From a virus (taxonomy: Duplodnaviria; Caudoviricetes): 64,000 nucleotides of DNA. Positions 10,536 to 45,100 of this stretch are shown piece after piece. Under the pieces are notes generated by a model, which searched no databases, was not told the origin of the DNA, and was given only the letters and a program-made list of their open reading frames with translations. The stretch covers positions 14,988 through 78,987 of IMG/VR virus record IMGVR_UViG_3300020037_002148; one strand, written 5' to 3'. Positions within the stretch are counted from its first letter, which is position 1. Each line of letters starts with the position of its first letter. Made by a program: the position numbers and the translations under genes.

Positions 10536-13500
10536 ATGATAGAAGAATCTTTAGAAAAAGAAATGTTTAATGGAGATCAATTAGCAATTTCTGTATGGAA
10601 GTCAAAATATGCAGCAGAAGGAGAAACTCATTATAATCAAATGCATAAAAGACTTGCTAAAGAATTTGCAAGAATAGAAGATAGATATGTAAAAGAAGAA
10701 AGATTTAATCATGAATTAAATTTATCTAAATATGGTCAAGATAGAGAAAGATTAACTTATGAATCTATCTATGAATTATTTAAAGATTTTAAATACATAA
10801 TTCCACAAGGAAGTATAATGTCTAATTTAGGTAATAAAGCAATTACTTCATTAAGTAATTGTTTTGTTATAGGACAACCTAGTGACAGTTATGGTGGTAT
10901 ATGTAAGAAAGATGAAGAAATGGTTCAACTTATGAAAAGAAGAGGTGGTGTAGGATTAGATTTATCTACTCTTAGACCTGCTAAAACTTTAGTAAGTAAT
11001 GCAGCTAAGACTTCAACAGGTGTTGTGTCTTTTATGCATAGATATTCAAATTCTACAAGAGAAGTTGCTCAGGATGGAAGACGAGGAGCTTTAATGCTTT
11101 CAATACACATTAATCATCCAGATTCATTAGATTTTATCAAAATCAAAAGAGATTTATCTCAAGTAACTGGTGCTAATATATCTATTAAGATTTCAGAAGA
11201 ATTCATGAAAGCTGTGGAAGATGATGATGATTATTGGTTAAGATTTCCATGTGATAATAAAAAAGTTATTATGTGGGATACTTCTTGGGAATATAATAAA
11301 AATTATGAATGTTTAGATGAAGAAAGCCAGGTTGTAATTGCTAAAAGAATAAAAGCTAAAGAATATTGGAATGAAATCATTAAATCAGCTCATGGTTCAG
11401 CAGAACCAGGAATTATATTTGAAGATAATCATCACAATTACAGTCCTGATGGAGTATATCCACAATTCAAAGGAATTACAACAAATCCTTGTTTTCATCC
11501 AGATACATTAATAGAAACTGTAAACGGAAGAATTAAAATAAAAGATTTAGATTATCATAGTTTTGTTTATTCTAAAGATGAAGATGGTAGTTTATGTATT
11601 AAAAGAGCAAGTCCTTCTTTTATTTCTAAAACAAATGCTGAAACAATTAAAATTACTTTAAAATCAGGAAATTTTATTCAAATTACTCCAGAACATAAAT
11701 TATATGTTCAAAATAAAAATTGGATGGGTTGGAAAGAAGCAAAAGATTTGAAAATTGGTGATTCTATCGCACATTTATGTAGAAGTAGACGAGGAGCTAA
11801 ATATTCAGGAGTACATTTAACAACTTCTCCAAGTAGACAATTAGATCAAGTCATGGAACATAGGTTAGTATATGAAAGTTGTAACAAATTTACTACTAAT
11901 GATATTCATCATATTGATGGAAATACATTTAATAATAAAATATCTAATCTTGAAGAATTAACTCATGAAGAACATGCAAAACATACAGCAATAAATCAAA
12001 ATCCTCAAACACATCAGGTAAAAGATAAATTAGGAAGATTTATATCTGGTGAAAATTCTAAAAAAGGAGCTAAAACAATTATTAATATTCCTGATGAACT
12101 CAAAACTAATATGTTGAGTCAACATCATAATAGAATTATTTCTATTGAAAAAGGAGAAACTACAGATGTATATGATATTCAAGTAGAAGATACTCATTGT
12201 TTAATTGCAAATAATATGGTAGCTCATAATTGTGGAGAAATCTTTATGCAAGAATATGATGCTTGTAGATTAATTGCTGTAAATTACTTTAGTTTTGTAG
12301 ATAAACCATTTACAAAAGAAGCTAAATTTGATTTTGAGAAATTCTACAAAATTAATTATGAAGCAATGAGATTATCTGATGATTTAATTGATTTAGAACT
12401 TGAACATATTGATAGAATTCTTAGAAAAATATTAGAAGACCCTGAACCTTTTGAAGATAGAAGAACAGAGTTTGAACTTTGGACTAAAATTAAAGAAACT
12501 GCTACTGCAAGTAGAAGAACAGGTTTAGGATTTACTGCATTAGGAGATACTTTAGCTGCTTTAGGATTAAAATATGATAGTGATGAATCTTTAAAAATTA
12601 TTGATAAAATAATGCATACTAAGATGGGATCTGAATTAGATTGTACTATTGATTTAGCAATTTTAAGAGGTACATTTCAAGGTTGGGATTCAAACCAAGA
12701 ATATAATATTAATAGTCAATATGATGAATACGATATTGAACATTTAAATATTAAAGGTAAAAATGATTTTTATACTTTTATAGCTAATAAATATCCCAAT
12801 CAAGCTGAAAAAATGATTAAATATGGTAGAAGAAATATAAGTTTTTCAACTGTAGCTCCAACAGGTACAGTCTCAATAATGTCAGCTTCAACATCAGGGA
12901 TTGAACCACTTTTCTCACCTTATTACTTTAGAAGAAAGAAAATTAATCCAAATGATGAAGGAGTAAGAGTAGATTTTACAGACCAAAATGGAGATAAATG
13001 GCAAGAATTTCCTGTATTACATCCTAAATTTAAAGATTGGTATATAATAAAAGCTCAATGTGAACATTGTACTCATGTAGCTTTAGAAGCTTTAGAAAGA
13101 GCAAGTAAAGAACAATTAAAGGAAATATTTGAAATGTCTCCATATTATCAATCTACAGCTAATGATATAGATTGGGTAAAAAGAGTTGAAATTCAAAGTG
13201 TAATACAAAAATATATTACTCATAGTATTTCATCTACTATTAATTTACCAAATACCGTAACTGAAGCTGAGGTAAGTGAAATTTACATGGAGTCTTGGAA
13301 GAAAGGTTTAAAAGGTATTACTGTTTATAGAGATGGGAGTAGAAGTGGTGTGTTAATTACTGAATCTACTAAAGATAAACAAACATTTGAATATAAAGAT
13401 GCAGTTAAAAGACCAAGAGAATTAGATGCTGATGTTCATAATATTACATTAAAAGGAGTTCATTATAAAGTGATAATTGGTTTATTAGATGATAAACCTT

Positions 13501-13883
13501 ATGAAGTATTTTTTGATGAAACAGAAAATAAAATAAGTGGTAAAGGTATAATATTTAAAAAAGCTAGAGGAAATTATTTTTTTAAAAAAGATGATATTAC
13601 TACTGATATTACTTCTAATATGACTGATGAACAAGTAGCCATATCAAGATTAGTTAGTACTAGTCTTAGACATGGAGCTTCTATACATTTTATTACAGAA
13701 CAACTTTCTAAATGTGATGGAGATATATTTTCATTTACTAAATCATTAGCAAGAGTGTTGAAGAAATATATTCCTGAAGGAACTAAGTCTACAATAACTT
13801 GTAATGATTGTGGTTCTGATGATGTAATATTTGAAGAAGGATGCTCCAAATGCAGATCATGTGGCAGCTCTAAATGCGGCTAA
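10536..13883 (+). CDS. nrdJ: class II (adenosylcobalamin-dependent) ribonucleotide reductase, intein-containing
   Basis: SLSNCFV, RRGGVG, RRGALM, EPG, TTNP|CGE, RRTGLG, VAPTGT, TSGIEP, SSTINLP, KGITVYRDGSR; C-terminal TSCPD-like domain and Zn ribbon; no ATP cone; no small subunit nearby. Confidence 0.9.
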   Translation: MIEESLEKEMFNGDQLAISVWKSKYAAEGETHYNQMHKRLAKEFARIEDRYVKEERFNHELNLSKYGQDRERLTYESIYELFKDFKYIIPQGSIMSNLGNKAITSLSNCFVIGQPSDSYGGICKKDEEMVQLMKRRGGVGLDLSTLRPAKTLVSNAAKTSTGVVSFMHRYSNSTREVAQDGRRGALMLSIHINHPDSLDFIKIKRDLSQVTGANISIKISEEFMKAVEDDDDYWLRFPCDNKKVIMWDTSWEYNKNYECLDEESQVVIAKRIKAKEYWNEIIKSAHGSAEPGIIFEDNHHNYSPDGVYPQFKGITTNPCFHPDTLIETVNGRIKIKDLDYHSFVYSKDEDGSLCIKRASPSFISKTNAETIKITLKSGNFIQITPEHKLYVQNKNWMGWKEAKDLKIGDSIAHLCRSRRGAKYSGVHLTTSPSRQLDQVMEHRLVYESCNKFTTNDIHHIDGNTFNNKISNLEELTHEEHAKHTAINQNPQTHQVKDKLGRFISGENSKKGAKTIINIPDELKTNMLSQHHNRIISIEKGETTDVYDIQVEDTHCLIANNMVAHNCGEIFMQEYDACRLIAVNYFSFVDKPFTKEAKFDFEKFYKINYEAMRLSDDLIDLELEHIDRILRKILEDPEPFEDRRTEFELWTKIKETATASRRTGLGFTALGDTLAALGLKYDSDESLKIIDKIMHTKMGSELDCTIDLAILRGTFQGWDSNQEYNINSQYDEYDIEHLNIKGKNDFYTFIANKYPNQAEKMIKYGRRNISFSTVAPTGTVSIMSASTSGIEPLFSPYYFRRKKINPNDEGVRVDFTDQNGDKWQEFPVLHPKFKDWYIIKAQCEHCTHVALEALERASKEQLKEIFEMSPYYQSTANDIDWVKRVEIQSVIQKYITHSISSTINLPNTVTEAEVSEIYMESWKKGLKGITVYRDGSRSGVLITESTKDKQTFEYKDAVKRPRELDADVHNITLKGVHYKVIIGLLDDKPYEVFFDETENKISGKGIIFKKARGNYFFKKDDITTDITSNMTDEQVAISRLVSTSLRHGASIHFITEQLSKCDGDIFSFTKSLARVLKKYIPEGTKSTITCNDCGSDDVIFEEGCSKCRSCGSSKCG
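11490..12230 (+). mobile_element. intein (247 aa) with HNH endonuclease domain in nrdJ
   Basis: Block A CFHPDTLIET, block B ITPEH, block F/G VYDIQVEDTH...VAHN followed by Cys. Internal EHRLVY...IHHIDGNTFNNKISNLE. Removal restores TNPCGE. Confidence 0.93.
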
Positions 13884-14103: not shown

Positions 14104-14328
14104 ATGATAATATATTTAAATAAACAGTATGGATTAAATGGTGAAACAATAAAATTCTTTCCATATTGTAAAGATAAAGTTGAAGAAGGTCATTATATAG
14201 TATATGGTGATTATACTTTAGCTTGTATAAAAGAAAATGAATTTACTTTGGTAACTGATAATCCAAATGATTCTATACTTGGTTCTGATTTATTAAACAA
14301 TGAATGGAAATTATGGAAAAAGCTGTAA
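14104..14328 (+). CDS. hypothetical protein
   Basis: ATG 14104 preferred over GTG 14077. Confidence 0.5.
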   Translation: MIIYLNKQYGLNGETIKFFPYCKDKVEEGHYIVYGDYTLACIKENEFTLVTDNPNDSILGSDLLNNEWKLWKKL

Positions 14329-15557
14329 ACATAGTAACAATAAAAGCAAAAATACCTTTATTTAAAGGTGATGATAAAGCTGAAAGAATAGAACTTATTC
14401 AATTAGAAGAAAATGGTTTTGAATTAGTTTCTCAAAAAGATTTATACCAAGTAGGAGATAAAGCAATTTACTGTCAACCTGACTATTGTCTTAGTGATAT
14501 ACCTTTATTTGAAAGTTTTATAAGACCTAATAATAAGGATGGTAATCCTGATGAAAGTAAATCAATGCTCGGAAAAGTACGTGGATTACCAAGAAGAATC
14601 AGAGCTAAGAAATTTAACTTTCACAAAGGAGATGGAATTTCTGTTTATAGTAATGGTATTCTACTTCCTATAAAAGAAGTAATGAATTATTTAAATATTC
14701 CTTTTAATAAAGAAGATAAAATATTTGATGTTGATTCTAATTTAACACAATTATTAAATATTACTAAATATGAAGAACCTGAAAGTAATTCAGGTCCTGG
14801 AGTAAAAGGTGGTAGTTCAATGGCTTTTCCACAAGGTATTATCAGAACAGATGAAGAGAATTTTAATAATTTAATTCATCATGTAGAGAAATTATTACCT
14901 TGTAGATTAATTGGAAGACAAAAGATTGATGGAAGTTCTATTACTCTTTGGTATAAAGATGGTAAATATGGAATTGCTTCAAGAAATTTAGGTAAACCAT
15001 TAACTATTACAAAAGTTACAGGAAGAAGAAAACCTACTTTATGGGAACAATTTTTATCTATAAAAATAAATTCTATTATATTTTCTATGATTGGTTTTAA
15101 TACTAAAATAGATTTAAATATTTATAGTGAAGTAGAATCTGATAGTGATTTTGTTAAATATGGTAAACCTTATTTAAATAAATTAATTGAACATTGCGAT
15201 GAATATAAAGTTAATTTAGTACTACAGGGTGAACTTTGTGGTCAAGGTATGAAAGGAAGTGGGAATAAAAATAATCCTACTGCTAAAGAACCAACTGATA
15301 TAATTTTCTTTAATGTTTGTAAATATGAAAATCAATCTGTTAAATTATCTGAAGAAGATTTTGATTTATATTCTAATTCTTTAGAATTTAAAACACCAAA
15401 ACTATATTTTGATAGAGTATTTAATACTATAGAAGAAGTAAAACAAGAATGTGAATCTATCTTTAAATCTGAATTAATTGAAGGTATAGTTATTAGAGAT
15501 GAAAATCACTCTTTCTCATGTAAAATGATGTCAAATGAATATGATTCAAAAAAATAA
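14304..15557 (+). CDS. RNA ligase, Rnl2/DRB0094-like
   Basis: N-terminal AERIE...YQVGD..IY..PD module; nucleotidyltransferase motifs QKIDGSS, QGELCG, EGIVIR, KMMSNEY. Confidence 0.85.
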   Translation: MEIMEKAVNIVTIKAKIPLFKGDDKAERIELIQLEENGFELVSQKDLYQVGDKAIYCQPDYCLSDIPLFESFIRPNNKDGNPDESKSMLGKVRGLPRRIRAKKFNFHKGDGISVYSNGILLPIKEVMNYLNIPFNKEDKIFDVDSNLTQLLNITKYEEPESNSGPGVKGGSSMAFPQGIIRTDEENFNNLIHHVEKLLPCRLIGRQKIDGSSITLWYKDGKYGIASRNLGKPLTITKVTGRRKPTLWEQFLSIKINSIIFSMIGFNTKIDLNIYSEVESDSDFVKYGKPYLNKLIEHCDEYKVNLVLQGELCGQGMKGSGNKNNPTAKEPTDIIFFNVCKYENQSVKLSEEDFDLYSNSLEFKTPKLYFDRVFNTIEEVKQECESIFKSELIEGIVIRDENHSFSCKMMSNEYDSKK

Positions 15558-16575
15558 AATAATTATATTAATCTTATTGCTATTTTCAATAAATAGTTTT
15601 AGTTGTCCTAAAATAAAAGGAATATTAATTGATGCTTGTGGTACAAAAGAAGAATTAAATGAATGGATGGTATTAACAACAGATACAGCTATTATAGTTA
15701 ATAATCTTAGAATAGATTATGATGCTAATAACAATAGTGGTGGAACTGTAAATGCTGATATTACAAGTGGAGGATGTTCTTGGAGAGTTCCAAGAACTTC
15801 TTCTATTGATTCTCTTAAAATAAATAGTTTATATAATTCTAATATAATATCTATAAGTCCTGGAGGAACTATTCCTGCAAATTCTACTATTTTAGTATTA
15901 ACTTCTGATAGTATGAATTTTGCATATAATATTACTAATCTTACTCAATATGGAAATGTTTATGTTATTCAAAGTTCATGTAAAAGAAATACAGGAGCAT
16001 TTACTAATTTAGGAAATGGAGCTAATTATAGATTAACTAAAATTATTTATAATACTTGTAGAGATAGTGTATGGCATTACATAGGAAACAGTGCTGTAAA
16101 TGGACACTATGGTGTTAGAAATAGAGATACTATGAGAATTAGTTATGGTAATATTTTTACTTCTTCTTGTAATGAGTATATGATTCTTCCAATAGAATTA
16201 GTTTCTTTTATTGTAAATTGTGATCTAATAGAATTTATAACAGCTAGTGAGAATAATGTCAGAATGTTTTATATTGAAACATCTTTTAATACTATAGACT
16301 GGATAGTGATAGATTCTTTACCACCAAGAAATTATAATAATACTCTAACTAATTATAGTGTTACAAATCCACATTTAGGACAATATTTTAGAATTAGAGA
16401 AGAAAATTTTGATAATATTTTTTATTCTACAATGTATTATACTAAATGTGAACAGGATATAAAAGAGTATAAATTATATAATTTCTTAGGACAACAAGTA
16501 AATGAAAAAGACAATCTTCCAAAAGGTGTATATATAAAGAGATTTAAAAATGAAAGTATAAAAGTAATTAAATGA
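15535..16575 (+). CDS. secreted protein with T9SS type A C-terminal sorting domain (lamin-tail-like N-domain plus Ig-like LPxEL domain)
   Basis: Signal peptide KNKIIILILLLFSINSFS; DACGTKEELNEWMVL; LPIELVSF...TASENN..FYIETS...YFRIRE..FD...YS; C-terminal YNFLGQQV...LPKGVYI...KVIK. Confidence 0.7.
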   Translation: MNMIQKNKIIILILLLFSINSFSCPKIKGILIDACGTKEELNEWMVLTTDTAIIVNNLRIDYDANNNSGGTVNADITSGGCSWRVPRTSSIDSLKINSLYNSNIISISPGGTIPANSTILVLTSDSMNFAYNITNLTQYGNVYVIQSSCKRNTGAFTNLGNGANYRLTKIIYNTCRDSVWHYIGNSAVNGHYGVRNRDTMRISYGNIFTSSCNEYMILPIELVSFIVNCDLIEFITASENNVRMFYIETSFNTIDWIVIDSLPPRNYNNTLTNYSVTNPHLGQYFRIREENFDNIFYSTMYYTKCEQDIKEYKLYNFLGQQVNEKDNLPKGVYIKRFKNESIKVIK

Positions 16576-16898
16576 CATCAGAAGAACAAATAAAACATGT
16601 AGTAAAATTAGATAGTGATTTATTAGATATTATAGAATCTAAGTCAAATGATTATGCAGACGCAGATGTATTATCAAACTTTAAAATAGTTTCTGAAATA
16701 GTTAAATTAGCTAAAATAGATGCTACATTACCTGAAGGTTATGCTATGTTAATGGTTATACTTAAAATAGTTAGAATTTGGAATTTAAAATCAAGTGGTA
16801 AAACACCAGAGAATGAATCATTATTAGATAGTTATAAAGATTTAATAAATTATTGTAAATTATCTTACTTATGTGAGATGGAAAGTAAATGTAATTAA
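16572..16898 (+). CDS. nucleotide-modification-associated domain protein (DUF1599/Nmad1-like)
   Basis: KSNDYA...LSNF...LKIVRI...NESLLDSYKDLINY. Confidence 0.7.
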   Translation: MTSEEQIKHVVKLDSDLLDIIESKSNDYADADVLSNFKIVSEIVKLAKIDATLPEGYAMLMVILKIVRIWNLKSSGKTPENESLLDSYKDLINYCKLSYLCEMESKCN

Positions 16899-17972: not shown

Positions 17973-18749
17973 ATGAATAAAGAAAGGATATATAAAGTGG
18001 TATCAATAACTATTATAGTAATATTAGTATTATTGAATTTAAAATCTTGTAAAAATACACAGGACACTAAAAAAGATTATGTAAATACGATTAATGCTTT
18101 ACAAGATACAATGACTACTTATTATAATAAAGATGGAATGCAAGTAGCTAAAATATCTGCAATTGAAACAGAAAAAGCAAGTATGTTTTTAGATATAAAA
18201 TCTAAAGATGCTGTTATAATCAAACTTCAGGAAGAAGTAAAGAAGAATAAAAATAGGATAGGTAAGTCTGGTTCAGTTACAGTTATAACAAATACTACAG
18301 AATTAAATACTGTAGATACTACTTATGTTACATCAAAAGATACTATAGTTAGAAATGATACTGTCTTTGTATATCCTGAATATTCATCTTTTATTAGAAA
18401 AGGTTTAAGAATAGATTCTTCTTATTGGATAGAAGCTAATGTAAAAGCAAATAGAGATAGTACAAGTTTTGAGCTTGGAATTCAAAATAGTTATACTATT
18501 GTATTAGGCAGAGAAAAAGCTAAGAGTTTTAAGGGTTTATTTAAACCTAAGATAGCTTTTGCAGAAGTTACAAATGAAAACCCTTATACTACCACTAAAA
18601 CTATAAGAGCTTATCAAGTAAAAGTTCCTAGACCTAAAAGATTAGGAATAGGAGTGAATGTAGGATATGGAATCATCCTTGATAAAAAGCCTGTATTTAG
18701 ACCTTACATTGGAATTGGATTACAATATAATATAATAGAGATATTTTAA
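17973..18749 (+). CDS. membrane-anchored protein, putative spanin-like lysis factor of Bacteroidota phages
   Basis: N-terminal TM helix, coiled coil, C-terminal beta hairpin RLGIGVNVGYG...PYIGIGLQYNI. Confidence 0.5.
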   Translation: MNKERIYKVVSITIIVILVLLNLKSCKNTQDTKKDYVNTINALQDTMTTYYNKDGMQVAKISAIETEKASMFLDIKSKDAVIIKLQEEVKKNKNRIGKSGSVTVITNTTELNTVDTTYVTSKDTIVRNDTVFVYPEYSSFIRKGLRIDSSYWIEANVKANRDSTSFELGIQNSYTIVLGREKAKSFKGLFKPKIAFAEVTNENPYTTTKTIRAYQVKVPRPKRLGIGVNVGYGIILDKKPVFRPYIGIGLQYNIIEIF

Positions 18750-19849
18750 TGGAAAATTTATTATCTAAAGAAGAATTTATTGTAGATTGTATTAATAAGT
18801 CAAATGGAGAAAGACAAGAAGTATATAAATGGTTAGTTGAAGAAAGAAATTACAGTAGTGCATATTATCTAAGAAATACTTATCCTGTTATAGTTTGTAA
18901 TTTATCAAGTGGTGATAGTAATTTTACTAGTTTATTAGATGCTCTTAATAATTATCCAAACTATCCAGTATATACATTTGAACAATTTAAAAATAAAATA
19001 AATCAAAAACAAGAATTTAAAGGAATGAAAAAAACAATGTTAGATGTCTTAGAAAAGACATATGAAAATCCAATACTTAGAAAAAGTACAGTGCCCTTAT
19101 TCATGTCAAATCCTGGAATTGGTAAAACAACTATCATTAGAGAATTTGCAGAAAGTAAGGGTGTAAAAATGCTTAAAATGACTCTTAGTCAAAGAATGCC
19201 TAATGAAGTAGTAGGTATGATGATGCCTAATATGAAATCAGGTAAACTTGAAGTATTTGATAGTTATGAACTATCATCTTTAAAAGATGGAGATATTTTA
19301 TTTATTGATGAAGTATTTAATGGTACTTTAAAACAAACTTTAGATGCTTTTTTAAATCTTTTAGAAGATAGAACTTTACCAAGTGGTAAAAAAATGGCTG
19401 ATATAATGATTGTAGGAGCTTCTAATCCACAAGGATTAATTAATCTCACACCTCAAATTAAAGAAAGATTTATTAGATATGATCCAAAATTCTCAAGAGA
19501 AGAGTATCAAGAATATCTTGGTTTAAAATATGGAATGCCTGAAAGTATATCACTTAATTTGTGTACATTAATTCGAAAAGAAAAATTTGAAGATGGTTGG
19601 AATTTTCATACACCAAGATCTATTGAAAAAGCAATTAATCAAATTGGTTGTGAATTAGAAAGTGCTCTTGATGAAGTTTTACTTCCATATTTAAAACAAG
19701 AAATACAACTTGAAAAAGACTATAAAGATTTAAATTATAAAAAAGGAGAAAATATAGAATATTTAACTATATTAAAACATTTTTGTAAAATATTTAATAA
19801 AAAATCTATAAGTACTTTAATTAAAACAGAGTTAGAAAATGCTCAATAA
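18749..19849 (+). CDS. MoxR-like AAA+ ATPase with an N-terminal extension
   Basis: Walker A SNPGIGKT, Walker B LFIDE, sensor GASN, RF finger, TPRS. Confidence 0.85.
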   Translation: MENLLSKEEFIVDCINKSNGERQEVYKWLVEERNYSSAYYLRNTYPVIVCNLSSGDSNFTSLLDALNNYPNYPVYTFEQFKNKINQKQEFKGMKKTMLDVLEKTYENPILRKSTVPLFMSNPGIGKTTIIREFAESKGVKMLKMTLSQRMPNEVVGMMMPNMKSGKLEVFDSYELSSLKDGDILFIDEVFNGTLKQTLDAFLNLLEDRTLPSGKKMADIMIVGASNPQGLINLTPQIKERFIRYDPKFSREEYQEYLGLKYGMPESISLNLCTLIRKEKFEDGWNFHTPRSIEKAINQIGCELESALDEVLLPYLKQEIQLEKDYKDLNYKKGENIEYLTILKHFCKIFNKKSISTLIKTELENAQ

Positions 19850-19859
19850 AAAATAAAAA

Positions 19860-20801
19860 ATGTTACAAAAAATAATATCAAAAAAAGTAGAATTACCTCC
19901 TATCTGGTTAGTTGAAAATGAAGCTGACTTTAATGAGTTACCTAAAGGATTACCTTATATAATAGGTAGTAAAAAAGAATTATCATTTATTACAATCTTT
20001 TTAGAGTTTCAACTTTTAATGAGATCTTGTAAAAAAACAAAATTATCAATTGATTGGTTATCTTGTTTAGAAAAATTAGGGTATAAAAGAATTAGAACTT
20101 ATAGTTTAAATTCAGGTGGTACTTTTGAAGGAGGTAATCCTGTAGATAATAGTCCTATACCATTAGATTCTTTTATAGAAGATCAATATTTAGTAGATTT
20201 TGATAAATTAACTGAATTGAAAATTTTACCTTCTTGGTTAGAAGATTTAAGAACTTCTATTGAAACTAATATAATTGATGAAGTGACTTTTAATCCAAGT
20301 AGTTTTAACAAACAATTAGGAATGAATATTGGAGGTGCTGATTTAAAGCACAACAAGAAAAATTTATTAATACTAGATGTATCAGGTAGTATTCCTGATG
20401 GAATTGTAAAAACAATTACAAATTTAGCAAAATTAATGTCTAAAAAGTTTTTTGCAGATGTAATTATTACAGGTGGTCAATCATATATTGTAAATTATGA
20501 AGATGTACAAAATTCAGATTTCGTTGCACTAGCTGCAAAAGCAGGTAGAAATAATGAAGGTGAAATGTTTAAAAAAATCTTAAATGAAATTAAAGATTAT
20601 AATAGTGTAATTTGTTTTGGTGATGATGATAATCCTGGTAGATTTGACAAATCAAGTCAAAATATTAAATGTAATTTCACTTGTGAAACTCTTTATTCAT
20701 TACATACAAGTAGCTCATCATCATTAGCAGGTTATTGTAGAGAATTAAAACCTACAAAATCAACAATCCATGTAAAAGATTGGGTTACTACTATTAAATA
20801 G
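19860..20801 (+). CDS. vWA-domain protein, partner of the MoxR ATPase
   Basis: MIDAS LILDVSGSI, later FGDDD; adjacent to MoxR. Confidence 0.7.
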   Translation: MLQKIISKKVELPPIWLVENEADFNELPKGLPYIIGSKKELSFITIFLEFQLLMRSCKKTKLSIDWLSCLEKLGYKRIRTYSLNSGGTFEGGNPVDNSPIPLDSFIEDQYLVDFDKLTELKILPSWLEDLRTSIETNIIDEVTFNPSSFNKQLGMNIGGADLKHNKKNLLILDVSGSIPDGIVKTITNLAKLMSKKFFADVIITGGQSYIVNYEDVQNSDFVALAAKAGRNNEGEMFKKILNEIKDYNSVICFGDDDNPGRFDKSSQNIKCNFTCETLYSLHTSSSSSLAGYCRELKPTKSTIHVKDWVTTIK

Positions 20802-33178: not shown

Positions 33179-36100
33179 TTATGATTTTAATGAATAACAT
33201 TTTTTGGTTTTATCTTCTATTTCTTGTTTACTTTTCCCTGCTTTAACCATAAAGTTATTAGCAACTCTTTCTAATTCCTCAATAGTTCTATTTTTAGTGC
33301 CTTCTAAAGTTACTTTAGTTATTGCTGAATATTGATTAATTAAATTAATAAAATTTAATCTTACTTCAGTTTCATCTTTAGCTTTTTCCTTAGTTTTATT
33401 AAACATATTCATTTTCACTTTCTCTGTTTGTTCAGGTGAAAGTACCATGTCTAATTGATCTTTAATACTATTAGTTAAAGAAGATATTTCACCACTACCT
33501 AATATAATATGTTGATTATATAATGCTTTAGTTCCTTCAATATAACCATTTTCAAATTGATTAGCAATAGCTTTAGCTATATTTACTAATCTTTCTCTAC
33601 CATTTTTATATGTTTTTAATTTAGCATCATTATTAATAATCTCATAAATAGTATTATTAAATAAATCACCATAATAAATATCACCTTTTAAAGATTCTTT
33701 ACTTGAGTTACTAAGTTCTAGCACTTTACCTTCAGGTGATATTTGAAAATTAATCCAACTACCATCAACTTGAATACTATCTTGTACAGCAGTTAATTTT
33801 AAAGGTATTCTAGCACTATTTTTACCAGATAAATAAGTTATTATAGGAAATCCTATTTTACTATAAGGAATAATTTTATCACCTGATTTATATGTTTTAG
33901 CTATTTTTTTAAATATAACTATTTCATCTCTTAAAATAAATTTTTTATTTTCTTTTTTAATTTGAGATTTTTGTTCAGGTTTCATTCCTTTAGTAATTCT
34001 TGCAAATTGATTTACTACTAAAGTGTTATTTTTACTATCAAAGAATATAGGGTAATTATCTTCCAATACTAACTCCTCTTTTTCATTAGTATCACTTTCA
34101 TTATCATTTACAAAATCCTCACTTTCAATTTTATTATCTTTAATCCATTTTTCATCAATTACTTTTCTTAGAACATCAATCTTTTGAGATTTTAAATCAA
34201 AGTAATTATTTTGATTTAATCCAAATTTAATTATAAAGTCTAAATTCAATTCTTCTTTAGACATTCCAAAAGTTTCTATATATTCTTTACTGGAACTCAT
34301 TTTACTGAATAATTCTTGAACTTTATCTAAAGCATTTGAAGTTTCAGTAAATAATATAGGATCAATAGCTTTTATAAAAGATTGATTTTGAAACATTAAA
34401 CCATCTTTAACTACAAGATATTTAAACATATCCTTAGCAAATTTAGTTTTAAGAGTATTAATTCTTCTAATTTCAGGATCTCTTTCTAAGATATTATTAT
34501 TTTCTGCAAAATATAAATCATTAAAACTCGAAATTATACTTGAAATAATATCTGGATTTTTTAAAGCTCTTGAATTAGCTCCAAAACCATGAAATCTATA
34601 ACCAAATAAAGTATTTTTATTTGCTTGTTTTTTAAGATAATCAATATTTTTTATTTCAAGAAATTCTAAGAAATCATTTTTAATTCCATTTTTATAATTA
34701 TATTCAATTATTTGTAAGAAATTAGTTTGTAATTCATTATTCTCTTTAGTGTTATCTTTAGCAATTTCTTCTAAAGGAGTTAATAAAAATTCTTCAATTT
34801 TAGGAAGTTTATCATCAGTATTTTTAACACTTTCAGCATAAGCCATCACTGTTAAATATGATAAATAATGTTTTCTTAAATTACTTTGAAAATCAACATT
34901 ACCTGCTTTATAATCTTTAAATAAAGTAAGTATATCTTCTCTTGTTTTTTTAGCTGTTGGAGTTTGAGATATAAAATACTTTTCACTTAACTTAGTTAAA
35001 GCTAAAGCTGTTTTAATAGATTGTTTTAAGAATTTATCTTTTTCAAAAATATCACCAACACCATTTCCAATTATCTTAGTAGTATCTTTATAATTTTTAT
35101 AAAATTTATCAGTAGGTTTATCATTTTTTACAATATCTAAACCATTTTCACTAACACTCCATCCTAAATTATTTAAAGCTGTAATAAACTTTTCAGATTC
35201 TGCAAATGTGCTTTTAAAACCTTTAATTAATTGTAATAAATTTTGCAGATTACTAAATACAGTAGATGCTTTTTTATAATGGAAATATTCATTAGAGATT
35301 CTTTTTAAAATAGCTTTTTGATTACTTACAGGTTTTTCTTCTTGAGAAAATAAATCTTTTTGTTCTTGATAGTCACCAAATCTTTCTTTAAATTGTTGTT
35401 CATTAGAAATATCTTGACCACTTTCATTTCTAAAAGTCCATCCTTTAGGAGCTAATATTAGTGTAGGTAAATTTAATTTAAATCCTGCTTTAGCTCCTGC
35501 TTCATCTAAACCTGTTTGTCCTCCAGTTCTAATTCTTTCTATTGGATTTTCTAAATCAGGTGAACTTAAAACAGCTTGTAATAATTCATATACATAATCA
35601 TCTAATTGCTCTTGAGTATATTTACCTTTCATAGTATATATACCATTACCAGCAATGTTTAAAGTCTTAGCTTTAGTTTCATTTAATTGTTCTACAATAT
35701 TATCAACTATTTCTGGAGTTACTTCTAAAGAGTCTTTAATATCAATAGGAATATATTTTTTACTTTGTCCTTCAACAGAAGATTTAGTTAATCTTTCACC
35801 AGCACTTGTAAAATCTACTGCAATAGCTATTGTAGCATCAGCAGAAGCGTTTTTAATAGTTCTTTGTTTATAACCTGTAGATTGTTCTTCTAAAAAAGTA
35901 ATTCCTTTAGAAAATTCTTCTTTAATTACTTCTTTATTTTTCAAAGAATCCAATAAAGTTTGATAATTTAAATCTCCTTCAAATTCAGATTCACCTTCTA
36001 ATTGAAATATACTTTCTACTTTCTTCTGTAATTCTCTATTTCCTTTACTATCATCATAATCTTGTTTAGATTGAATAGTTTTATTATATGATTGAGATAA

Positions 36101-39100
36101 TTCAGAAATCTTTTTAACAATTGGAGATTTCATTAATAACATTACATTATTAAAATTATGACCTACACCAATCATAGCTAAAGCTACAGGAAGTGTTTCA
36201 GTAGTTAAATTAAACAGATTAGCCATTTGCTCTTTAGCATTATCAGTCATTGCTGCTAATAATGTAGCTATACTATCTTGAACTCTTTGAGCATCTTTTT
36301 CATCTACTAATTTATTATTTTCATCTCTTGAATAATTAACAAAAGGTTCTAAATTAATCTTTTCACCTACTTTTCTTTCAATAGTTACTTTATTTTTAAA
36401 TAATATTCCAAAGAGATTATTAAACAAAGCTACTGGTCCAATATTAGCAGCTCCTGTTGAAATAGATATGTCAGCAAGAGTTTTAGAAAGCATATCATGT
36501 ACTCCATATCCTAAATCTTTATTAATTAATCCTTCTCCTTCAAGAGTTTCAATTAAATCTTTAAATAATTTAAGACTTGTAGGTGTATTAGTTATTTTAT
36601 TATTACCATCATTATTAATTAGCTTTCTTTCTAATTCTAATAACATATTATTAGTTTCTCCTTTTGTTAAAGGTTCTATACTATCTATATTACCAGATTG
36701 ATAAGCAATATAATTACTTTCAATTACATCTTTATTTTTATAAGTCCATTCTCCTTTATTGAATATAATTTTATTAATAATGAAAGATTGTTCTAATAAA
36801 GTTAATTCTAAAGATTTAATTTCATCAATGATACCTAATAATTCAGAAGTAGCTGGTTTTACTAATTGTTCTCTAGTAAATACATTTGGTATTTCTTTAA
36901 CTTTTCTTAAACTATTTTCAGCAATAGTTTTTTCTCTGGTTAATTCAATTAATTCTTTACTATTAGTTTTTAAATCATTAAATGTAGAAGATATTTTTTT
37001 ATTATCATAAGCATCAGATAAATATTCATTATATGCTTGTTCTTTAGCTTCTTCCAAAGTTGATTGAAATAAATAACTACCATATATTCCTGTTTTTTTA
37101 TTTAAAACATTTGTATAAGTTTGATTTACTCTTACATATAAAGCATCAATATCAAAGTCAGCTCCAGATAATTCAACAATTTCATTTGGTAACATAATTG
37201 CATTACCATAACTATCAGGTAGTATATCTACTATTTTACAATTAATCATAGAGTGTTTATCTTCTGTTGGAATTCTGACTCCAGATATATATAAAAATTC
37301 TTGAGGTATTTCACCTTTGTGAAATTGATCTGCTGTAAATCCAAATTTCTTTAAGAATCTTTCACTTACTACAATTTCAGAATAATATTCATGTTTTTCT
37401 TTATCATAAACATCATGTCTTAATCTTTGAGAAACAATATTAGCTCCTCTTGGTCTATTATCTCCTTTAGATTGTCTAGTAGTGAATGTTTTAATTACAT
37501 TACCTTCATTATCAATTTCTCTCTCTAATTCACTACCAACACTTGACATTAAAGATAATTTAGAACCAGCAACTTTTTGTTTAAGTGTACCACCACTAAC
37601 AAAAGAAAGGAACATTGATTGAAATTTAGTTTCAATTGCAGGATTATTTAAATTGTATTTAGGTTTGCTACTATTTCCTTGTTGAAATAATTCTAGTTGT
37701 TGAGGATCAGCAGATGATTTTTCAATTGAATCTATAAAACTTTTTAAAAGTAAATCCCATTCAGCATCTCCATTTTCATCTAACATCTCTTTTTTAAGAG
37801 CTTTAAATCCTTTATCAGTTCTTTCAGCTAATTGTTTTTCATAAACATTTAATGCAGTACCAATATTTATTTCTTTATTTTTAAAATAAATTAAAGTTTC
37901 ATTTATTTGTTCAGTAGAAATTAATCTTAAAAATTGAGTAGGATGTGTTATTTGTTTTTTAACTCCATCAGTTTTTTGTTGATCAATTAAACTTGCATTT
38001 GGTACAGAAATTGATGAAATAACTTTTTTACCATTTTCATTTTTATATAAAAAAGGTTGCCCATTACTAATTTCATGTATATTGTATTTACTTCTTTTCC
38101 AAGCACTATCATATACTGCAATAGCATTATTTAATTCCAGTTCATTTAATAAATTATGTTTATATTCTTTACCAGGGATAGCTTCAAATAAATTCTGATA
38201 TTTTTTAGTTAAATAAGTAATATAAGCATTATCAGAAGGTGATGCTTGTAATTTCAAATCAAATAGTTCTTTATGTATTAGAAGAGCTTCTTTAAGATTT
38301 TCTTTTGAATAATTTTTTAATCTTGAAGTTGTTTCTCTTAAAATTGGAGAAATTGAAGTTTTTAAATACCAATCTAAACCAAAACCTTGTGTTTTATTAG
38401 GTTGGTGTTGTGCATTATTATCATAGAGGTAATCATAATCTTCTTTAGTTATTTTTTGTAATTCACCTTCACTATTTATATAATAATTTAAGCCACTATC
38501 AATTCCTTGATATATTTCTTTAATTCTATTATCAATTGATTTAGAATTTAGAATAACTGATAAATGATGAAAAGGAGTATTGAATGTTTGAGCATCTGTA
38601 GTATCAATTTTATTTACTACTTCAGATCTAATAGGGATTATATTTGTAACTCCACTACCATAATTAGAACCACTACCAATCATACCTTTAGCTCTTTTTA
38701 CAAAGTCATTAGCGTTTTTACTAGATGTAGCATTGTCTCCATACATTAAAGAATTAATACCATAAGACATTAAATAGTCATTTAAAAAAGCATTTTTTAA
38801 AGCATTTTTATCTAATTGATTTCCAGAAATAAAAGATTTTGGTAATAAGTTAACTTCACCCTCTTTAAGAAGACCTTTATCTTCTAATAATTTAATATAT
38901 TCGTCAACTTGAAAATCAATAAAATTAGATAATCTTTGTTTAATTTCTTCTTCAGAAAGATCTTTTTCATTTAATTTAGTATTTTTATTAGCAAAGTTAA
39001 ATAACTTTAATCCTTTTGGTATTAAACTATTTAAATTAATTTCTTTTTTTATTGTAGAACCATCCTCTTGTTTTTCATTATAATATAATTCTTCTTTAGA

Positions 39101-42100
39101 TAGGTTTACAACATTATTATTATTATCAATGTCTAAATAGAAATAAGTTCCATCACTATGTGTAAATATTTTAACTGATTTATTACCATTAGTGCCTTCT
39201 ACACCAATATTTTGTAACATATAATGAAATCCTTCATTATATCCATCTTTCTTAAAACCTAAATAATATTCATCTATTTCACTTTGAACAATTTTAATTC
39301 TCTCTACTTCTTGATTATATATAGAATATAAGGAATTCAATCCTTTTTCATTAATTTTACCTTTTTCAATAAAATTATTAAAAGGTAATAATACCATTGG
39401 TATAGTAGATGCACTTTCATATTGAGAAGCTATATAATAAGCATATTTTTGTTTACCTACAACTTTTAAATTATATTTATTATAAGCACTATCAGCTAAA
39501 AGACTTAATCTATATAATATTTTAGCAGTAGTATCAGCATTATTATAACTTTTACCATCACTATCAGAAAATAATCCATAATTTTTAGAAGATACATCTA
39601 CATCTTCACTATCTTCATACTCAGTTACATTAGTTTCTTCTTGTCTAATACCTCCAGCATAAGCCATAGTTAAAGTGGTAAATAAAGTATCAATATCTAC
39701 ATTATTAAATAGAGGATTATGATCTAACACTTGTAAAAAATTATCTACTTGATATTCTTCTGTAAAGAAACTATATAAATAATATGTACCATTTTCTTCA
39801 TTATTTAATACTTTATCTTTAAATGTTTTAACATCTTTTGTTTCAAGATATTCTTTAATTAATTGAACATTATCTTTATCTTTTAATATATTTAATCTTC
39901 TTGAAATATCAGAAGGTGGTGTAATATCAAATATTCTTTTACCTTCTTGATTATTAAATGAAGATGGAATTATACTTGTATCAAATAAAGCTGTACTTTC
40001 AGCTACATCCATTAATTTACCAACAGCTCCTAATAAAGGTTCTGCTTTTTGAGTGGCAGGGTCTATATCATTATATATAGTGTTAGTTCCAAAACTAATA
40101 CCTGTAGTTAATGTTTTTTCAATACCATCTAAAAATTCTAAATTAATAGGTTTTATATCACTTGCTGAAAAATTATTATACCAATTTATTTCTTCATTTG
40201 TAAGTAAATTAGTATTTCCTGTTTCAAATACAAAGTTTATTAGATTGTATTTAATAAATTGTTCAGGTAATTCAATACCTAAATCAGAAAATGAACTTTT
40301 GAAAGTATTCACTAAAGCAATTACAGCTTCACTTTTTTCTTGTGATTTAAGTGATTTTGTATTTTCTAATAAATCTACATATTTTTGTAAAATATTATCT
40401 ATATTACTTTTATATAAATTTGCTTTAAAATCAATTTTAGCTTGTTCTAAATTGTCAATTCTTTTAGAATTCCAATTTCTTTCCCATCTACTAAATACTT
40501 GTTTACCAACATTTCTATTATTAGCATTTAACATTCTGGTTACACCTTCTTTAGAAAATAATACATCTTGTAAATAAGTTCTATTTTTTTCAAAATCAGA
40601 AGATATAAAACTAAATGTAGGTGATTTAGTTAATATTTTATAATATAAAGGACTTAATATTTCATATAATTTAGCAAAATCTTCAACATTAATTTCAGGT
40701 AATTCAAAACTATTATTTTTCTTTAATTCACTATAAATATCTTTATACCATTGATGTGTAAATGCTTTAATTTCAGGAGAAGTATTAGAAACAGAATATA
40801 ATAATCCTAAATGTTTATAAGCTGGAGCACCAACTAACATTTTTGTTAAATTAGAATATAAATGATTTCCGTTAATAGCAAAACTATAATTTTTACTTTT
40901 ATCATTAACTATATAATCATCAAATGGTTTTCCAATGCCAAATAAATCAATATTTGTACTCACTGAGGAAATATATTGCTTTACTTTTTTAGATGCTTTA
41001 TCCCAAGCATGATTAATTTCATTTTTACTTTTTTGAACAATTCCTGTATCATTTAATTCATCATCTTCTAAATCATCACTATCATCTAATTGTTCTTGTA
41101 AAATAGAAGATTCATTTACAAGATTATATAAAGGAAGTCTTTCAAAAACTTCTTGAACTACTATTTCTTGATTTTTTAAATTTCCTAAACTTTTATATAC
41201 ATTTAAATATTTTGAAGCTGTCTTATTTGCTAAATCATCATCTTTAATAGAATCAATTAAATCAGCAATAACTTCATTATTAGGGTTAAATCTCTCTCTA
41301 AATAAATCATAAATATCACTAATTTCATCATCAGTAATAATTTTTGATCCTTTATTTTTTAATATTTTAGCAGCTTCATTTGTAATTGTGTTAATGATAG
41401 CTTCAGATATTGAATAACTTAAATATCCTTTTTTATCTATATATTTACCATTAGTTAATTTAAGTTTATATTCTTGTACTAAAAGTTTATTTACATCAAT
41501 AGAATTATTGACATTTCTAATTACAGGAAATTTCTCTTTAGCATTTTTAAATTTACCTTGATAAATATCTGAGAATAATTGTGTTACAGCTCTTTCATTA
41601 GATGTATTATTTTTATCAAATATCCCTTTTAATAAATTCTTTATTCTTTCAAAGATTCTTCTTAACCATGATTGTGTTACAGATTTTTCAGCTTTCATAT
41701 ACTCCATAAAAGCATCTGCCATTTTTTCTTCTAGCCAAAGATTTTTTAATTCTTGTTGAGATAAATTAATTAAATCAGAAGATGATTCTTTTAAGGTTTG
41801 TAATTGTTCTTTAGTTGGTGTGCCATATAAAGATTCAGCACCATTAAGAGTTTTAATAATTCTACCTCTATCAAGCATTAATCTAAATACAGCATGAAAA
41901 GCTTCATGATATTCAAAACCTTTTACAGATTTACCATTTTTAGTAGCAAGATATATAGTTTTTAATTTACCTATAAATCTACCACCTACTTCACCTTTAG
42001 TTTTAAGGTTTCCGAGTATATCAATTAAATCAGTAACTTCAATAGTTCCATTAGGATTATCTTGAGTTTTAATAGGGAGTATTTGAGATAGATTTTTGAT

Positions 42101-45100
42101 TGCAGTATTATACTCAATTAAATCTTGGGTAGATAATTCTAATAATTTATTAGCACCTTCTGTTTCAGCTTCATTTTGAGCATTTGTAACAATTTGTACA
42201 AATTCTTCTAAACTCAATCCTTTTTCACTAATTTTAGATCTACGATAAACTCTTGAAAGTAAATCTTCTTCTTTTGGTAATTGTTCAAAATTAACACCTA
42301 ATTCTTCTAATTTATCTATATTTGGAGTTTGTTTAACTTCTATTTTAGGTTCTAAAGCAGCTAATTCTGCATCATATTTAGCGTTGATTTTATCTATTTC
42401 AGGTTTTAAAAGTTTTGATAACTCTTCTTTAGAATAACCACCTCTTTCTATAATCCTATTAAGTGTTTGACCTCCTCCCCCAATTTCAGGATTGTTTCCA
42501 CTGTCATTAGAGTAAGCTAATTCCATTAACTCTCTTGAAACATATTCATCTACCCCTAAAACTTTTACACTATTTTTAGATGTCTGTTTTTCACTTGTTC
42601 CAAACTTTTTTAAAGCTTCTTGTCTTCTTCTTTTTATATCAGCTTCAATAAGTTGCTTATGAGTTTTGTTTTCAGGATTATCTAATTTTTTACCTTCAAA
42701 ATAAACATTATCACCCTTAACTTCATAATTTGTATTACCTACTTTTCCTTGTGGTAAATCTGCATTTAAGTTTAATTCTATTTCAGATTGAGTAGTAGAT
42801 GTAGGTTGTTCTTCTAATGCTTTTAGTTCTGCAGAAGGAGTAGGAGAACTTTCAACTACTTGTATTATTGTTTTAGCTTCTTCTTGAGCTTCTAATTTAA
42901 CAGTATTTTCATTAAATAAATCTTCCTGTTCTTTATTTTGTATTTGTTCTTTAGCTTTTTGCTGTTGATTTATTTCTTCTTGTTGTTTTTCATTTCTAAG
43001 TCTTATATTTTCTCTAGTAGAAGTAATTTCTTTTACTTGTGTTCTATCAGGTCTTAAATATAAATTATATCCTAACTTCTTTTTAGTTACAAGATTTTCT
43101 AAAGATTGTTGATTATTTTTATTTAATAATACATTAGTATAGAATCCGTTTATTGTAGCATTTACGTTAGTTGCTTTTCTAAGTTTACCTAATACTGAAT
43201 ATTGGCTATCTTTTAAAATTAAAGAAGCAATTTCTTCATTTAATTTATTTTCATTTAAGACTTCATGTCTAAATTTTTTAATTTCTTCAATTTTTTGACC
43301 TAAAGTAATTTCTCCTTTTTCAAATCTTTTATTAATTGGGTCTAATTCTTCTTTACCTTTAGCAAAAGATTTAAAGAAGTTTTGACCATCAAAATAAATT
43401 GAAGAAGCTATAGTAGTTTTCTTCCCATTAATCTCTAATTCAAATGATAATTGCCCTATTTTATCAGAATAAGTAGATATGAAAGGAGTTACTTTAACTT
43501 TTTCTGTTTTATTTAATCCTGTTACAGATAAGAATAAATCAAAATTTTTAATATCTTCTTTAGGGTCTAATTCTTTTTTAGTTTTATCTTTATATTCTTC
43601 ATAATAAGAACTCAAACCTTCACTCATAATTTGAAGTGCTGGTAATAATGCTTTTTCATTATTTAAAAAGTTAACTATAAATTCTTCATTATTATCTAAT
43701 CCTTTTAATTTAGAAATAGTTTCATTTGAAGTGAAAATAGGTTGAATATATCCATTAGAATTAAATACTAATAAAGAAAATAAACTCCCTTTAGTGCTTA
43801 TAGCGTTTTCTTTTTTATATGATACTAAATTTTGGATAGCTTTTCTTTCTTCACTATTTTCTTTATCATCTCTATCTCTCCATAATACAGTACCATCTTC
43901 ATTTCTTTCTAATTTACCATTAATAATATTTACAAAATATAATTTTGAAAATCCCTGACCATCTCCAGTAGATTTACCAAAAATAACTATATTTTTATCT
44001 TCACCATTTACTTTAATAGTTTTAGTAGCAGCTTTAGTTAATACATTATCTGGATCATCAAGAGTGTCTTCTATTCTAGTTTCTATTATATTTCCATCTT
44101 TATCTTTATTATCAGTAAAATTCATCTCTATTTGAGATGAAAAAGAATTAAGATTAATCTGACCATTTGTTAAATTATTAAAATCTTCAAATGATATATC
44201 ACCTCTTTGAGTGATAGTATTCAATTTATTAGAAAAACTATTTAATTCTGTTAAATATTGACCTAACACTTTTCTATCTTCAATAGTAGAAATTAAATCT
44301 GAAGGAAATAACATTCCTAATACAATCTCTAAATAACCATCTTCTTTTAATTTACTAAAATCAATTGGACTCCATTTATCATTTATTTTAAGATAAATTT
44401 GATTTGGCATTTGGAATCCACCAATAAGTTCTCCATCTACTTTCATTTGAAAGTTAAATGGTTTATTATTACCTCTTACACCACTTAATGAAATTACATT
44501 TTGATTATCTTTTTCTTTTAAATCTGCTACAGCTTGTTCAATAGATTTAGGATTTTCTAAATCTGTTAAAGTAAAAGTAATTCTTTTTCTAAGATCTTTT
44601 TCATTTGGATTATTAGCAATTGAAGCTAGTTTATTTTCTTGTTGTTCATTATTAAATAAACTAAATAATTCATTTATATTAGAGAAATATGGTTTTTTAC
44701 CATCTTCTTTCTTTTGTTTTTCAGCTTCTTTTTTAGTTTGTTGTAATTCTATAATTCTTTCTTTTGCTTTAGCAATTAAAGTATTCACATTAACTTTCAA
44801 TGTATCATTAACAGTTTCTTTATATTGTTTTAAATGAGCTACTAAAGCATCAAGTGTATCTAAATCATCTTCTTGATTGATTATTGTACTTACTTTTGAA
44901 ATATATTCTTTCTGAGCTTTTACTTGCTCACTATCATCTTCTTTAACTTGTAAATCAACATTATTTTCAATTTCTTTTTCTGTATCTTTATCTATTTCAA
45001 GTCCTTGATTATGTAAAAATGTTTTAGCTTTTTCTTTTAAAAATTTTATTGTAGCAGCTCTTTCATTTCTTTTAACTTCTTTATCGAATTTCTCTCTACC

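Follow-up and report, generated by a model that had tools for sequence, protein, structure and literature searches.

A 64,000-nucleotide stretch of viral DNA (Duplodnaviria; Caudoviricetes), comprising positions 14,988 to 78,987 of IMG/VR record IMGVR_UViG_3300020037_002148 and referred to below as the window, contains an open reading frame (ORF) for a protein of 346 amino acids. Sequence comparisons support the view that this gene is phage-borne and was captured from cargo of the Bacteroidota type IX secretion system (T9SS). The protein is composed of a signal peptide, an N-terminal cargo domain (N-domain), an FN3/Ig-like module and a short tail which is read here as a minimised type A C-terminal sorting domain (CTD) and which may still serve export.

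Homologues of the protein fell into ∼40 clusters at 50–97% identity, none of which carries a functional name. The neighbourhoods of four members (P0025, P0022, P0009 and P0039) were read and all four were phage-like, with tight co-directional arrays of small genes; they lay on a 128 kb contig, a 101 kb contig that carries ribonucleotide reductase (RNR), a metallophosphatase and NAMPT and codes for a 4136-aa giant on its opposite strand, a 43 kb contig with RecA and MazG and a 39 kb contig with an RNA ligase. Two relatives, of the 373-aa P0039/P0040 type, were found on IMG/VR contigs, and an alignment-based scan of ∼185,000 species-representative (GTDB) genomes found no family member; the assertion of an earlier preliminary description that the gene is not a fragment of a host contig was thereby borne out. 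No match to the protein was obtained by tblastn against 50,697 cultured phage records or by a scan of viral contigs with the single protein as the query. The adjoining genes vary between phages, and within the replication arm the family acts like a mobile accessory gene. Across 31 family sequences 88 columns are invariant and, judged from these sequences, the family is under strong constraint. That the gene is decaying, functionless host DNA picked up by the phage is barely credible: the tail does look truncated when compared with the cellular homologues, but the ORF is intact in ∼40 clusters, on different phage backbones of 40–130 kb, and both the invariant columns and the lack of any member in the species-representative cellular genomes speak against decay. 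One relative, P0030 (61% identity), is a hypothetical protein at NCBI from a metagenome-assembled genome labelled 'Methanobacteriaceae archaeon' (locus K1X33_08680); this assignment is probably owed to a mis-binned phage contig, because the relatives sit in phage contexts.

The Sec signal peptide named in the preliminary description was recovered: it has Lys6 and Lys8, a hydrophobic run at residues 9–19 and, in its c-region, the small residues S-F-S. In 31/31 family members a start with positive charge, a hydrophobic run of 12–15 residues and a c-region of small residues are kept, while the sequence itself drifts. Signal peptidase I probably cleaves directly before Cys24, as judged from the sequence of the junction. 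In seven family members S-Q precedes the cysteine (S-Q-C), which fits the Gln rule for signal peptidase I in Bacteroidota; Gln at position −1 is a misfit for a lipobox. Eight cysteines are conserved, six of them invariantly and two in 28/31 sequences. Distant homologues have either both or neither of C24 and C175 and nearly always possess both C35 and C212; C229 goes together with C305 and, in the majority of cases, C81 with C149, so that disulfides C24–C175, C35–C212, C81–C149 and C229–C305 are probable. Four covarying cysteine pairs point to folding in an oxidising compartment and therefore outside the cytoplasm, and together with the signal peptide they support a protein built for export.

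It is quite unlikely that Cys24 is instead lipidated after cleavage by signal peptidase II and that the protein is a lipoprotein anchored in a membrane without the T9SS. This would agree with the invariance of Cys24 in the phage family, with its position adjoining the signal peptide and with the Ser or Gly found at −1 in most members. However, Gln occupies −1 in the seven S-Q-C members and in several cellular homologues, S-F at −3/−2 makes a poor lipobox, the equivalent cysteine lies ∼90–100 residues into the giant relatives described below, and Cys24 covaries with Cys175 as a disulfide partner would.

An exhaustive HMMER scan returned 367 proteins at E ≤ 1e-3, among them a group of cellular proteins of 392–402 residues with the same architecture: a signal peptide, the N-domain, an LPxEL FN3/Ig module and a C-terminal tail matching Por_Secre_tail (PF18962). 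The parts of the five proteins compared (P0044, P0099, P0144, P0168 and P0179) stand in the same order as in the phage protein, with 24–28% identity over the first two domains; residues 8–257 of the phage protein are homologous to P0044 with an E value of 3e-21. PF18962 was matched with E values of 5e-12 (P0044), 3e-12 (P0179), 3e-11 (P0168) and 6e-9 (P0144), the whole profile being covered above threshold in P0144, P0168 and P0179; P0099 was matched over profile positions 10–73 with E = 9e-6 and 26.3 bits, just under the 27-bit gathering cutoff. P0144 is MCB9260795.1, 'T9SS type A sorting domain-containing protein [Flavobacteriales bacterium]', encoded on a 1.47 Mb contig. In contrast to the phage protein, with its unmatched tail of 41 residues, the five cellular proteins have Por_Secre_tail matches of 66–76 residues (four of the five above 27 bits), and they lack the C81–C149 and C229–C305 pairs.

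The phage N-domain is closer (∼40–46% identity) to that of a second, larger group of giant proteins ending in CHU_C than to that of the cellular ∼390–400-aa family. In this group, whose members reach 3972 residues, the N-domain lies ∼90–290 residues from the N-terminus. Eight giants were scanned: CHU_C (a type B CTD) forms the end of three and Por_Secre_tail that of one, and in the remaining four no sorting domain was seen. One member of a cluster among these relatives is from Saprospiraceae. The N-domain is thus shared with giant T9SS proteins of Bacteroidota, in which it belongs to the N-terminal part and lies at the opposite end from the C-terminal anchor, as a binding tip presumably would. 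The comparisons with both groups support descent of the phage protein from Bacteroidota T9SS type A cargo.

The tail retains (Y/F)-x-L-(Y/F)-N-x-L-G-Q, L-P-x-G-x-Y-I-K and K-I-I-K, with Lys343 near the terminus; in terms of the CTD motifs, motif D (G-x-Y), motif E (the near-terminal Lys) and the preceding (Y/F)-(D/N)-x-x-G-(Q/R) strand are present. These residues are among its best-conserved positions, with frequencies over the 31 sequences of 0.94 (L318), 1.00 (G319), 0.94 (Q320), 0.94 (G331), 0.90 (Y333) and 0.90 (K343). When aligned with the cellular homologues, the tail lacks the first ∼25–30 residues of the CTD, comprising the first two strands and the P-N-P-type motif, as well as ∼10–15 residues between the G-Q and G-x-Y strands, comprising most of CTD strands 4 and 5. 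In the tail AlphaFold2 (AF2) predicted strands at residues 313–315, 332–336 and 341–345 only. In a profile–profile comparison (hhalign) of the short tails with six true CTDs, a score of 26.8 (P = 2.5e-5, probability 75%) was obtained, compared with 8.7 ± 1.9 (maximum 16.3) for 200 column shuffles and 7.5 for the reversed tail. P0039 and P0040 carry near-complete tails of ∼62 residues with all strands, and these long tails scored 34.1 (probability 89.7%) against the same CTDs. On the grounds of the profile–profile match, its position and the descent of the protein, the tail is read as truly derived from a type A CTD, minimised and under selection. The 'shortened type A CTD' of the preliminary description holds in this sense, through the family context and the hhalign score, and finds no counterpart in curated profiles at the level of the sequence. 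In the P0045 cluster (37% identity to the phage protein; a 90%-identity cluster) both 340-aa and 367/368-aa members occur, and the length of the tail or end may vary even among near-identical genes.

Several observations weigh against a functional T9SS signal. The preliminary description had proposed that the Por_Secre_tail/TIGR04183 and lamin tail domain (LTD) profiles be used for verification and had counted a missing CTD profile match against itself; for the single sequence neither PF18962 nor TIGR04183 was matched in Pfam (E ≤ 1) or NCBIfam (E ≤ 10), and PHROGs gave no relevant match. PF18962 was found at E ≤ 1 in 12 of 54 aligned relatives and, of the matches seen singly, only those of the cellular homologues reach or approach the threshold. 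A plain hidden Markov model (HMM) built from the six true CTDs gave the phage protein 3 bits only; run against all 100 ORFs of the contig, it did not single out this ORF and found no other CTD-bearing ORF. Set beside a seven-strand C-terminal sandwich of ∼70–100 residues, the tail has 41 residues and three of the seven strands. The presence of a T9SS in the host is itself something that we infer, from the hosts of the nearest cultured phages (F. psychrophilum and C. baltica, see below) and from the Flavobacteriales and Saprospiraceae homologues. Longer CTD regions are reportedly needed in F. johnsoniae, in work of 2017 credited to Kulkarni et al. Lastly, the translocon was found to bind the CTD in the form of a folded sandwich of seven strands, ∼40% of whose surface is buried in an SprA/PorV pocket of matching size; the fold is specified by the conserved motifs, which make no contacts except for a near-invariant C-terminal Lys (Lauber, 2024; PMC10994853). 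The Lys contacted in this model is retained in the phage tail as K343. The weak profile matches to PE-PGRS_C/PecA and GerPB were far below cutoff and were dismissed, and phmmer with residues 206–346 against the PDB sequences gave chance matches only.

Results on HBP35 of P. gingivalis point the other way. The family profile, which included cellular homologues with full CTDs, matched the CTD of HBP35 (5Y1A) among the PDB sequences with E = 0.002. The phage residues G319–K346 align to G313–P344 of HBP35, which has an equally short spacing between G-Q and G-x-Y and a Lys near its C-terminus; HBP35 differs in that the native protein retains the first two CTD strands and in that it comes from another order of Bacteroidota. 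In a nested series of GFP-CTD[HBP35] deletions the reporter needed the final 22 residues (motifs D and E) and could dispense with motifs A–C, and GFP fused to G313–P344 or P323–P344 (22–32 residues) gave porT-dependent modified forms in the outer membrane or at the surface (Shoji, 2011; PMC3120885). Because this study and that of Lauber conflict, export of the phage protein through the T9SS by means of its minimal tail, with action at the surface of the infected cell, is put at about an even chance: it is plausible and unproven. If so, the protein would be exported by Sec and would then fold in the periplasm, where the minimal tail (motifs C, D and E with the near-terminal Lys) would still engage PorV/SprA; it would be delivered to the surface or medium of an infected Flavobacteria-like cell, and the conserved N-domain would there bind a surface or environmental ligand.

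It is somewhat unlikely that the protein is exported by Sec without being a T9SS passenger, having either a periplasmic role or that of a PorV/SprA decoy which slows secretion and gliding and so removes T9SS-dependent receptors. A tail devoid of four of the seven strands that fails all curated profiles would be expected of such a protein, the translocon recognises a folded and size-matched sandwich, and selection on the remnant motifs fits a retained binding role. The HBP35 tails, which are equally short, nevertheless sufficed for porT-dependent surface localisation, some family members have near-full tails, and conservation is highest in the N-domain, for which a protein acting purely as a decoy would have no use (mean top-residue frequency over the 31 sequences of 0.85, as against 0.65 in the FN3 module and 0.63 in the tail). 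A bolder suggestion, to which we give little credence, is that selection has pared the tails of the entire phage family down to a minimal T9SS signal of ∼28–41 residues (three strands: the G-Q strand, G-x-Y and the terminal Lys), which is either sufficient for export or a non-translocatable tag occupying the SprA/PorV pocket. In the former case it would resolve the disagreement between the 22-residue HBP35 result and the folded-sandwich model; in the latter the phage would make a protein that inhibits type IX secretion and gliding in the host and hence T9SS-dependent phage receptors.

The N-domain, a candidate for the binding function under the T9SS-export reading, is an Asn/Ser/Thr-rich β-domain as stated in the preliminary description; the mature protein contains 12.4% N, 8.4% S and 8.0% T, and this richness is partly compositional, the genome having 25% G+C. 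The 'D.C...NEW' motif was also confirmed, at residues 32–44, with D33, C35, N42 and E43 invariant in the family. Modelled alone, the N-domain gave a mean pLDDT (predicted local distance difference test) of 89.6 and a predicted template-modelling score (pTM) of 0.89. Its top fold match was lamin B2 (2LLL; Z = 7.1, below 8; root-mean-square deviation 3.1 Å, 109 of 121 residues), and 11 lamin entries matched with Z = 5.6–7.1; archaellins tied with the lamin tail (Z = 6.2–6.7), and Foldseek gave E values of only 0.1–0.3. The first Pfam-named cluster in the ESM Atlas was LTD, with a score of 0.88. The domain begins with I-D-x-C...N-E-W and in this resembles the start of LTD (PF00932), but it is ∼75 residues larger and disulfide-rich, and PF00932 was matched neither in the protein at E ≤ 1 nor in the family-wide tally. 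'Lamin-tail-like' is therefore a reasonable description of the modelled fold but a weak lead as to membership of the LTD family. A search of BFVD gave nothing convincing for the N-domain, the best match being Gp352 of Bacillus phage G (E = 2e-3, TM score 0.38).

The FN3/Ig-like module also agreed with its initial assignment as an LPIEL Ig-like module: L218, P219, I220 and E221 are invariant in the family, and residues 218–311 of the model match many FN3/Ig-type domains with Z = 7.4–8.9 and rmsd values of 2.3–3 Å; the matches at Z = 8–8.9 have rmsd values of ∼2.5 Å over 79–94 aligned residues. The model clearly indicates an FN3/Ig sandwich, a generic fold that is uninformative on function. With the whole model, Foldseek against the PDB gave generic multi-Ig matches only, and in a wide structure search the match list was filled by this module, so that the search is silent on the tail. 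Matches to F5/8 type C in 17 relatives (best E = 2.6e-4, below cutoff) lay within the FN3 module and were ascribed to a generic likeness among sandwich folds. P0164, P0189 and P0169–P0171 match residues ∼200–346 of the phage protein only; their N-terminal parts are unrelated, and they combine the LPxEL FN3 module with a similarly short tail (PF18962 positions ∼24–74 only, E = 0.003–0.009). P0205 is likewise short-tailed. Together, the FN3 module and a short tail may form a unit that can be reused.

Phage particles commonly bear Ig-like domains, which would suit a virion decoration or adhesion protein whose hydrophobic N-terminus is no secretion signal; the FN3 module moreover resembles domains of the T1 and T5 tail-tip proteins (Z = 7.7–8.4), although the fold is generic. 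This possibility is very unlikely given that the gene lies in the replication arm (ligases, RNR, RecA, MazG) in every context seen and not among virion genes, that the signal peptide and the eight cysteines in covarying pairs are conserved and that the homologues are cellular secreted proteins.

Action of the protein by binding at the envelope of the infected cell is suggested because the N-domain is its most conserved part and is related to the distal domain of the giants, and because the gene lies among early/replication genes. The most likely purpose of export through the T9SS would be to remodel the surface of the infected cell, for example by masking T9SS-dependent phage receptors. Small Sec-exported envelope lipoproteins that are made during infection and stop further adsorption are known from other phages, namely Llp of T5 and Cor of T1 and φ80. 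They serve as an analogy for the proposed role only, since they belong to enterobacterial phages, have no relation in sequence or fold to the protein described here and do not involve a T9SS. In Flavobacterium columnare and F. psychrophilum, resistance to phages maps to gliding/T9SS genes; for this reason masking or removal of receptors is a sensible guess, and a phage protein that uses or blocks the T9SS could bear on superinfection exclusion. As a specific role, the masking or removal of T9SS-dependent receptors is rated as unlikely at best, and superinfection exclusion, receptor masking and jamming, all named in the preliminary description, are roles that the protein might have.

Phage-borne T9SS cargo is already known in principle (PMC7468147, PMC6949934): a T9SS type A cargo encoded by 'Cryophage' (Bellas et al., 2020; PMC7468147) and ORFs with T9SS sorting domains on crAss-like contigs (de Jonge et al., 2019; PMC6949934) have been described. 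In all of these cases, which are bioinformatic only, uncultured Bacteroidota phages carry genes built like host T9SS cargo, which presumably serve to commandeer the host's secretion and to change its cell surface. The published sorting domains were matched by standard profiles and follow enzyme, PA14 or BACON passengers, whereas the protein described here has an adhesin-tip-like passenger and a tail of ∼41 residues that curated profiles do not see. New in the present case are a tag that is conserved and has been minimised in nature, for which longer-tailed relatives serve as controls, and a passenger of the adhesin-tip type. The homology of this passenger to the distal N-terminal domain of the giants suggests that the phage displays or releases a binding module and not an enzyme. 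Conserved across many phages, the pared-down tag amounts to a natural experiment on the minimal signal accepted by the T9SS translocon, on which published results disagree.

The coordinates of the ORF, of its parts and of the adjoining ORFs are given in Table 1. The gene is embedded in a phage operon and overlaps both of its neighbours, as had been described initially.

Table 1. Features of the 346-aa ORF and its surroundings (positions in the window)
Feature	Position	Strand	Remarks
Whole ORF	15535..16575	+	346 aa + stop; ORF listing
Predicted Sec-type signal peptide, residues 1–23	15535..15603	+	Helix at residues 3–19 in the AF2 model; family comparison
N-terminal cargo domain, residues 24–212	15604..16170	+	∼190-aa β-sandwich; most conserved part; probable C24–C175, C35–C212 and C81–C149
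FN3/Ig-like seven-strand module, residues 218–311	16186..16467	+	Starts LPIEL, ends at Cys305; probable C229–C305
Tail read as minimised type A CTD remnant, residues 306–346	16450..16572	+	41 aa, three short strands
Overlap with 3′ end of upstream RNA-ligase ORF	15535..15557	+	23 nt
ATGA overlap of ORF stop and start of downstream ORF	16572..16575	+	4 nt
Upstream ORF	14304..15557	+	Pfam RNA_ligase, E = 9e-10
Downstream ORF	16572..16898	+	DUF1599-like, weak match

The DUF1599-like ORF is followed on its 3′ side by an ATP-dependent DNA ligase and a MoxR-type AAA ATPase, and the 346-aa ORF is an accessory gene in the phage's co-directional arm for replication and nucleotide metabolism. A single contig of 78,987 bp makes up the assembly; the window has a G+C content of 23–29% throughout and a strand switch as in two-armed phage genomes. 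A 1466-aa protein of the contig matches PHROG 15100 (phrog_15100), 'virion structural protein', with E = 1e-126, and its nearest cultured relatives are from Flavobacterium psychrophilum phages (Fpv1 and its kin; Caudoviricetes, Fipvunavirus) and Cellulophaga baltica phages. No tRNAs that might hint at the host were found.

Some further ORFs of the window were noted. A 1115-aa RNR ORF (10536–13883, +) has an apparent intein-like insert which starts with C-F-H-P-D-T-L-I-E, contains an H-N-H-like block and ends with H-N-C; a 1074-aa ORF on the contig of a relative gave faint Hom_end/LAGLIDADG matches. A 258-aa ORF (17973–18749, +) has a lipoprotein-like N-terminus (a hydrophobic run and then L-K-S-C) and a C-terminal match to DUF6808 (E = 2e-7), and is the sole other ORF of the window with an export-signal-like start. 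The region 18749–20801 (+) encodes the MoxR/AAA_5-type ATPase (E = 1e-11) and then a 313-aa ORF without a family match, which could together be a MoxR plus VWA-like pair in the phage replication arm. On the minus strand, one ORF of 4791 residues occupies 33179–47554; the 4136-aa ORF on the contig of a relative is in the matching position, on the strand opposite to the homologue of the 346-aa protein.

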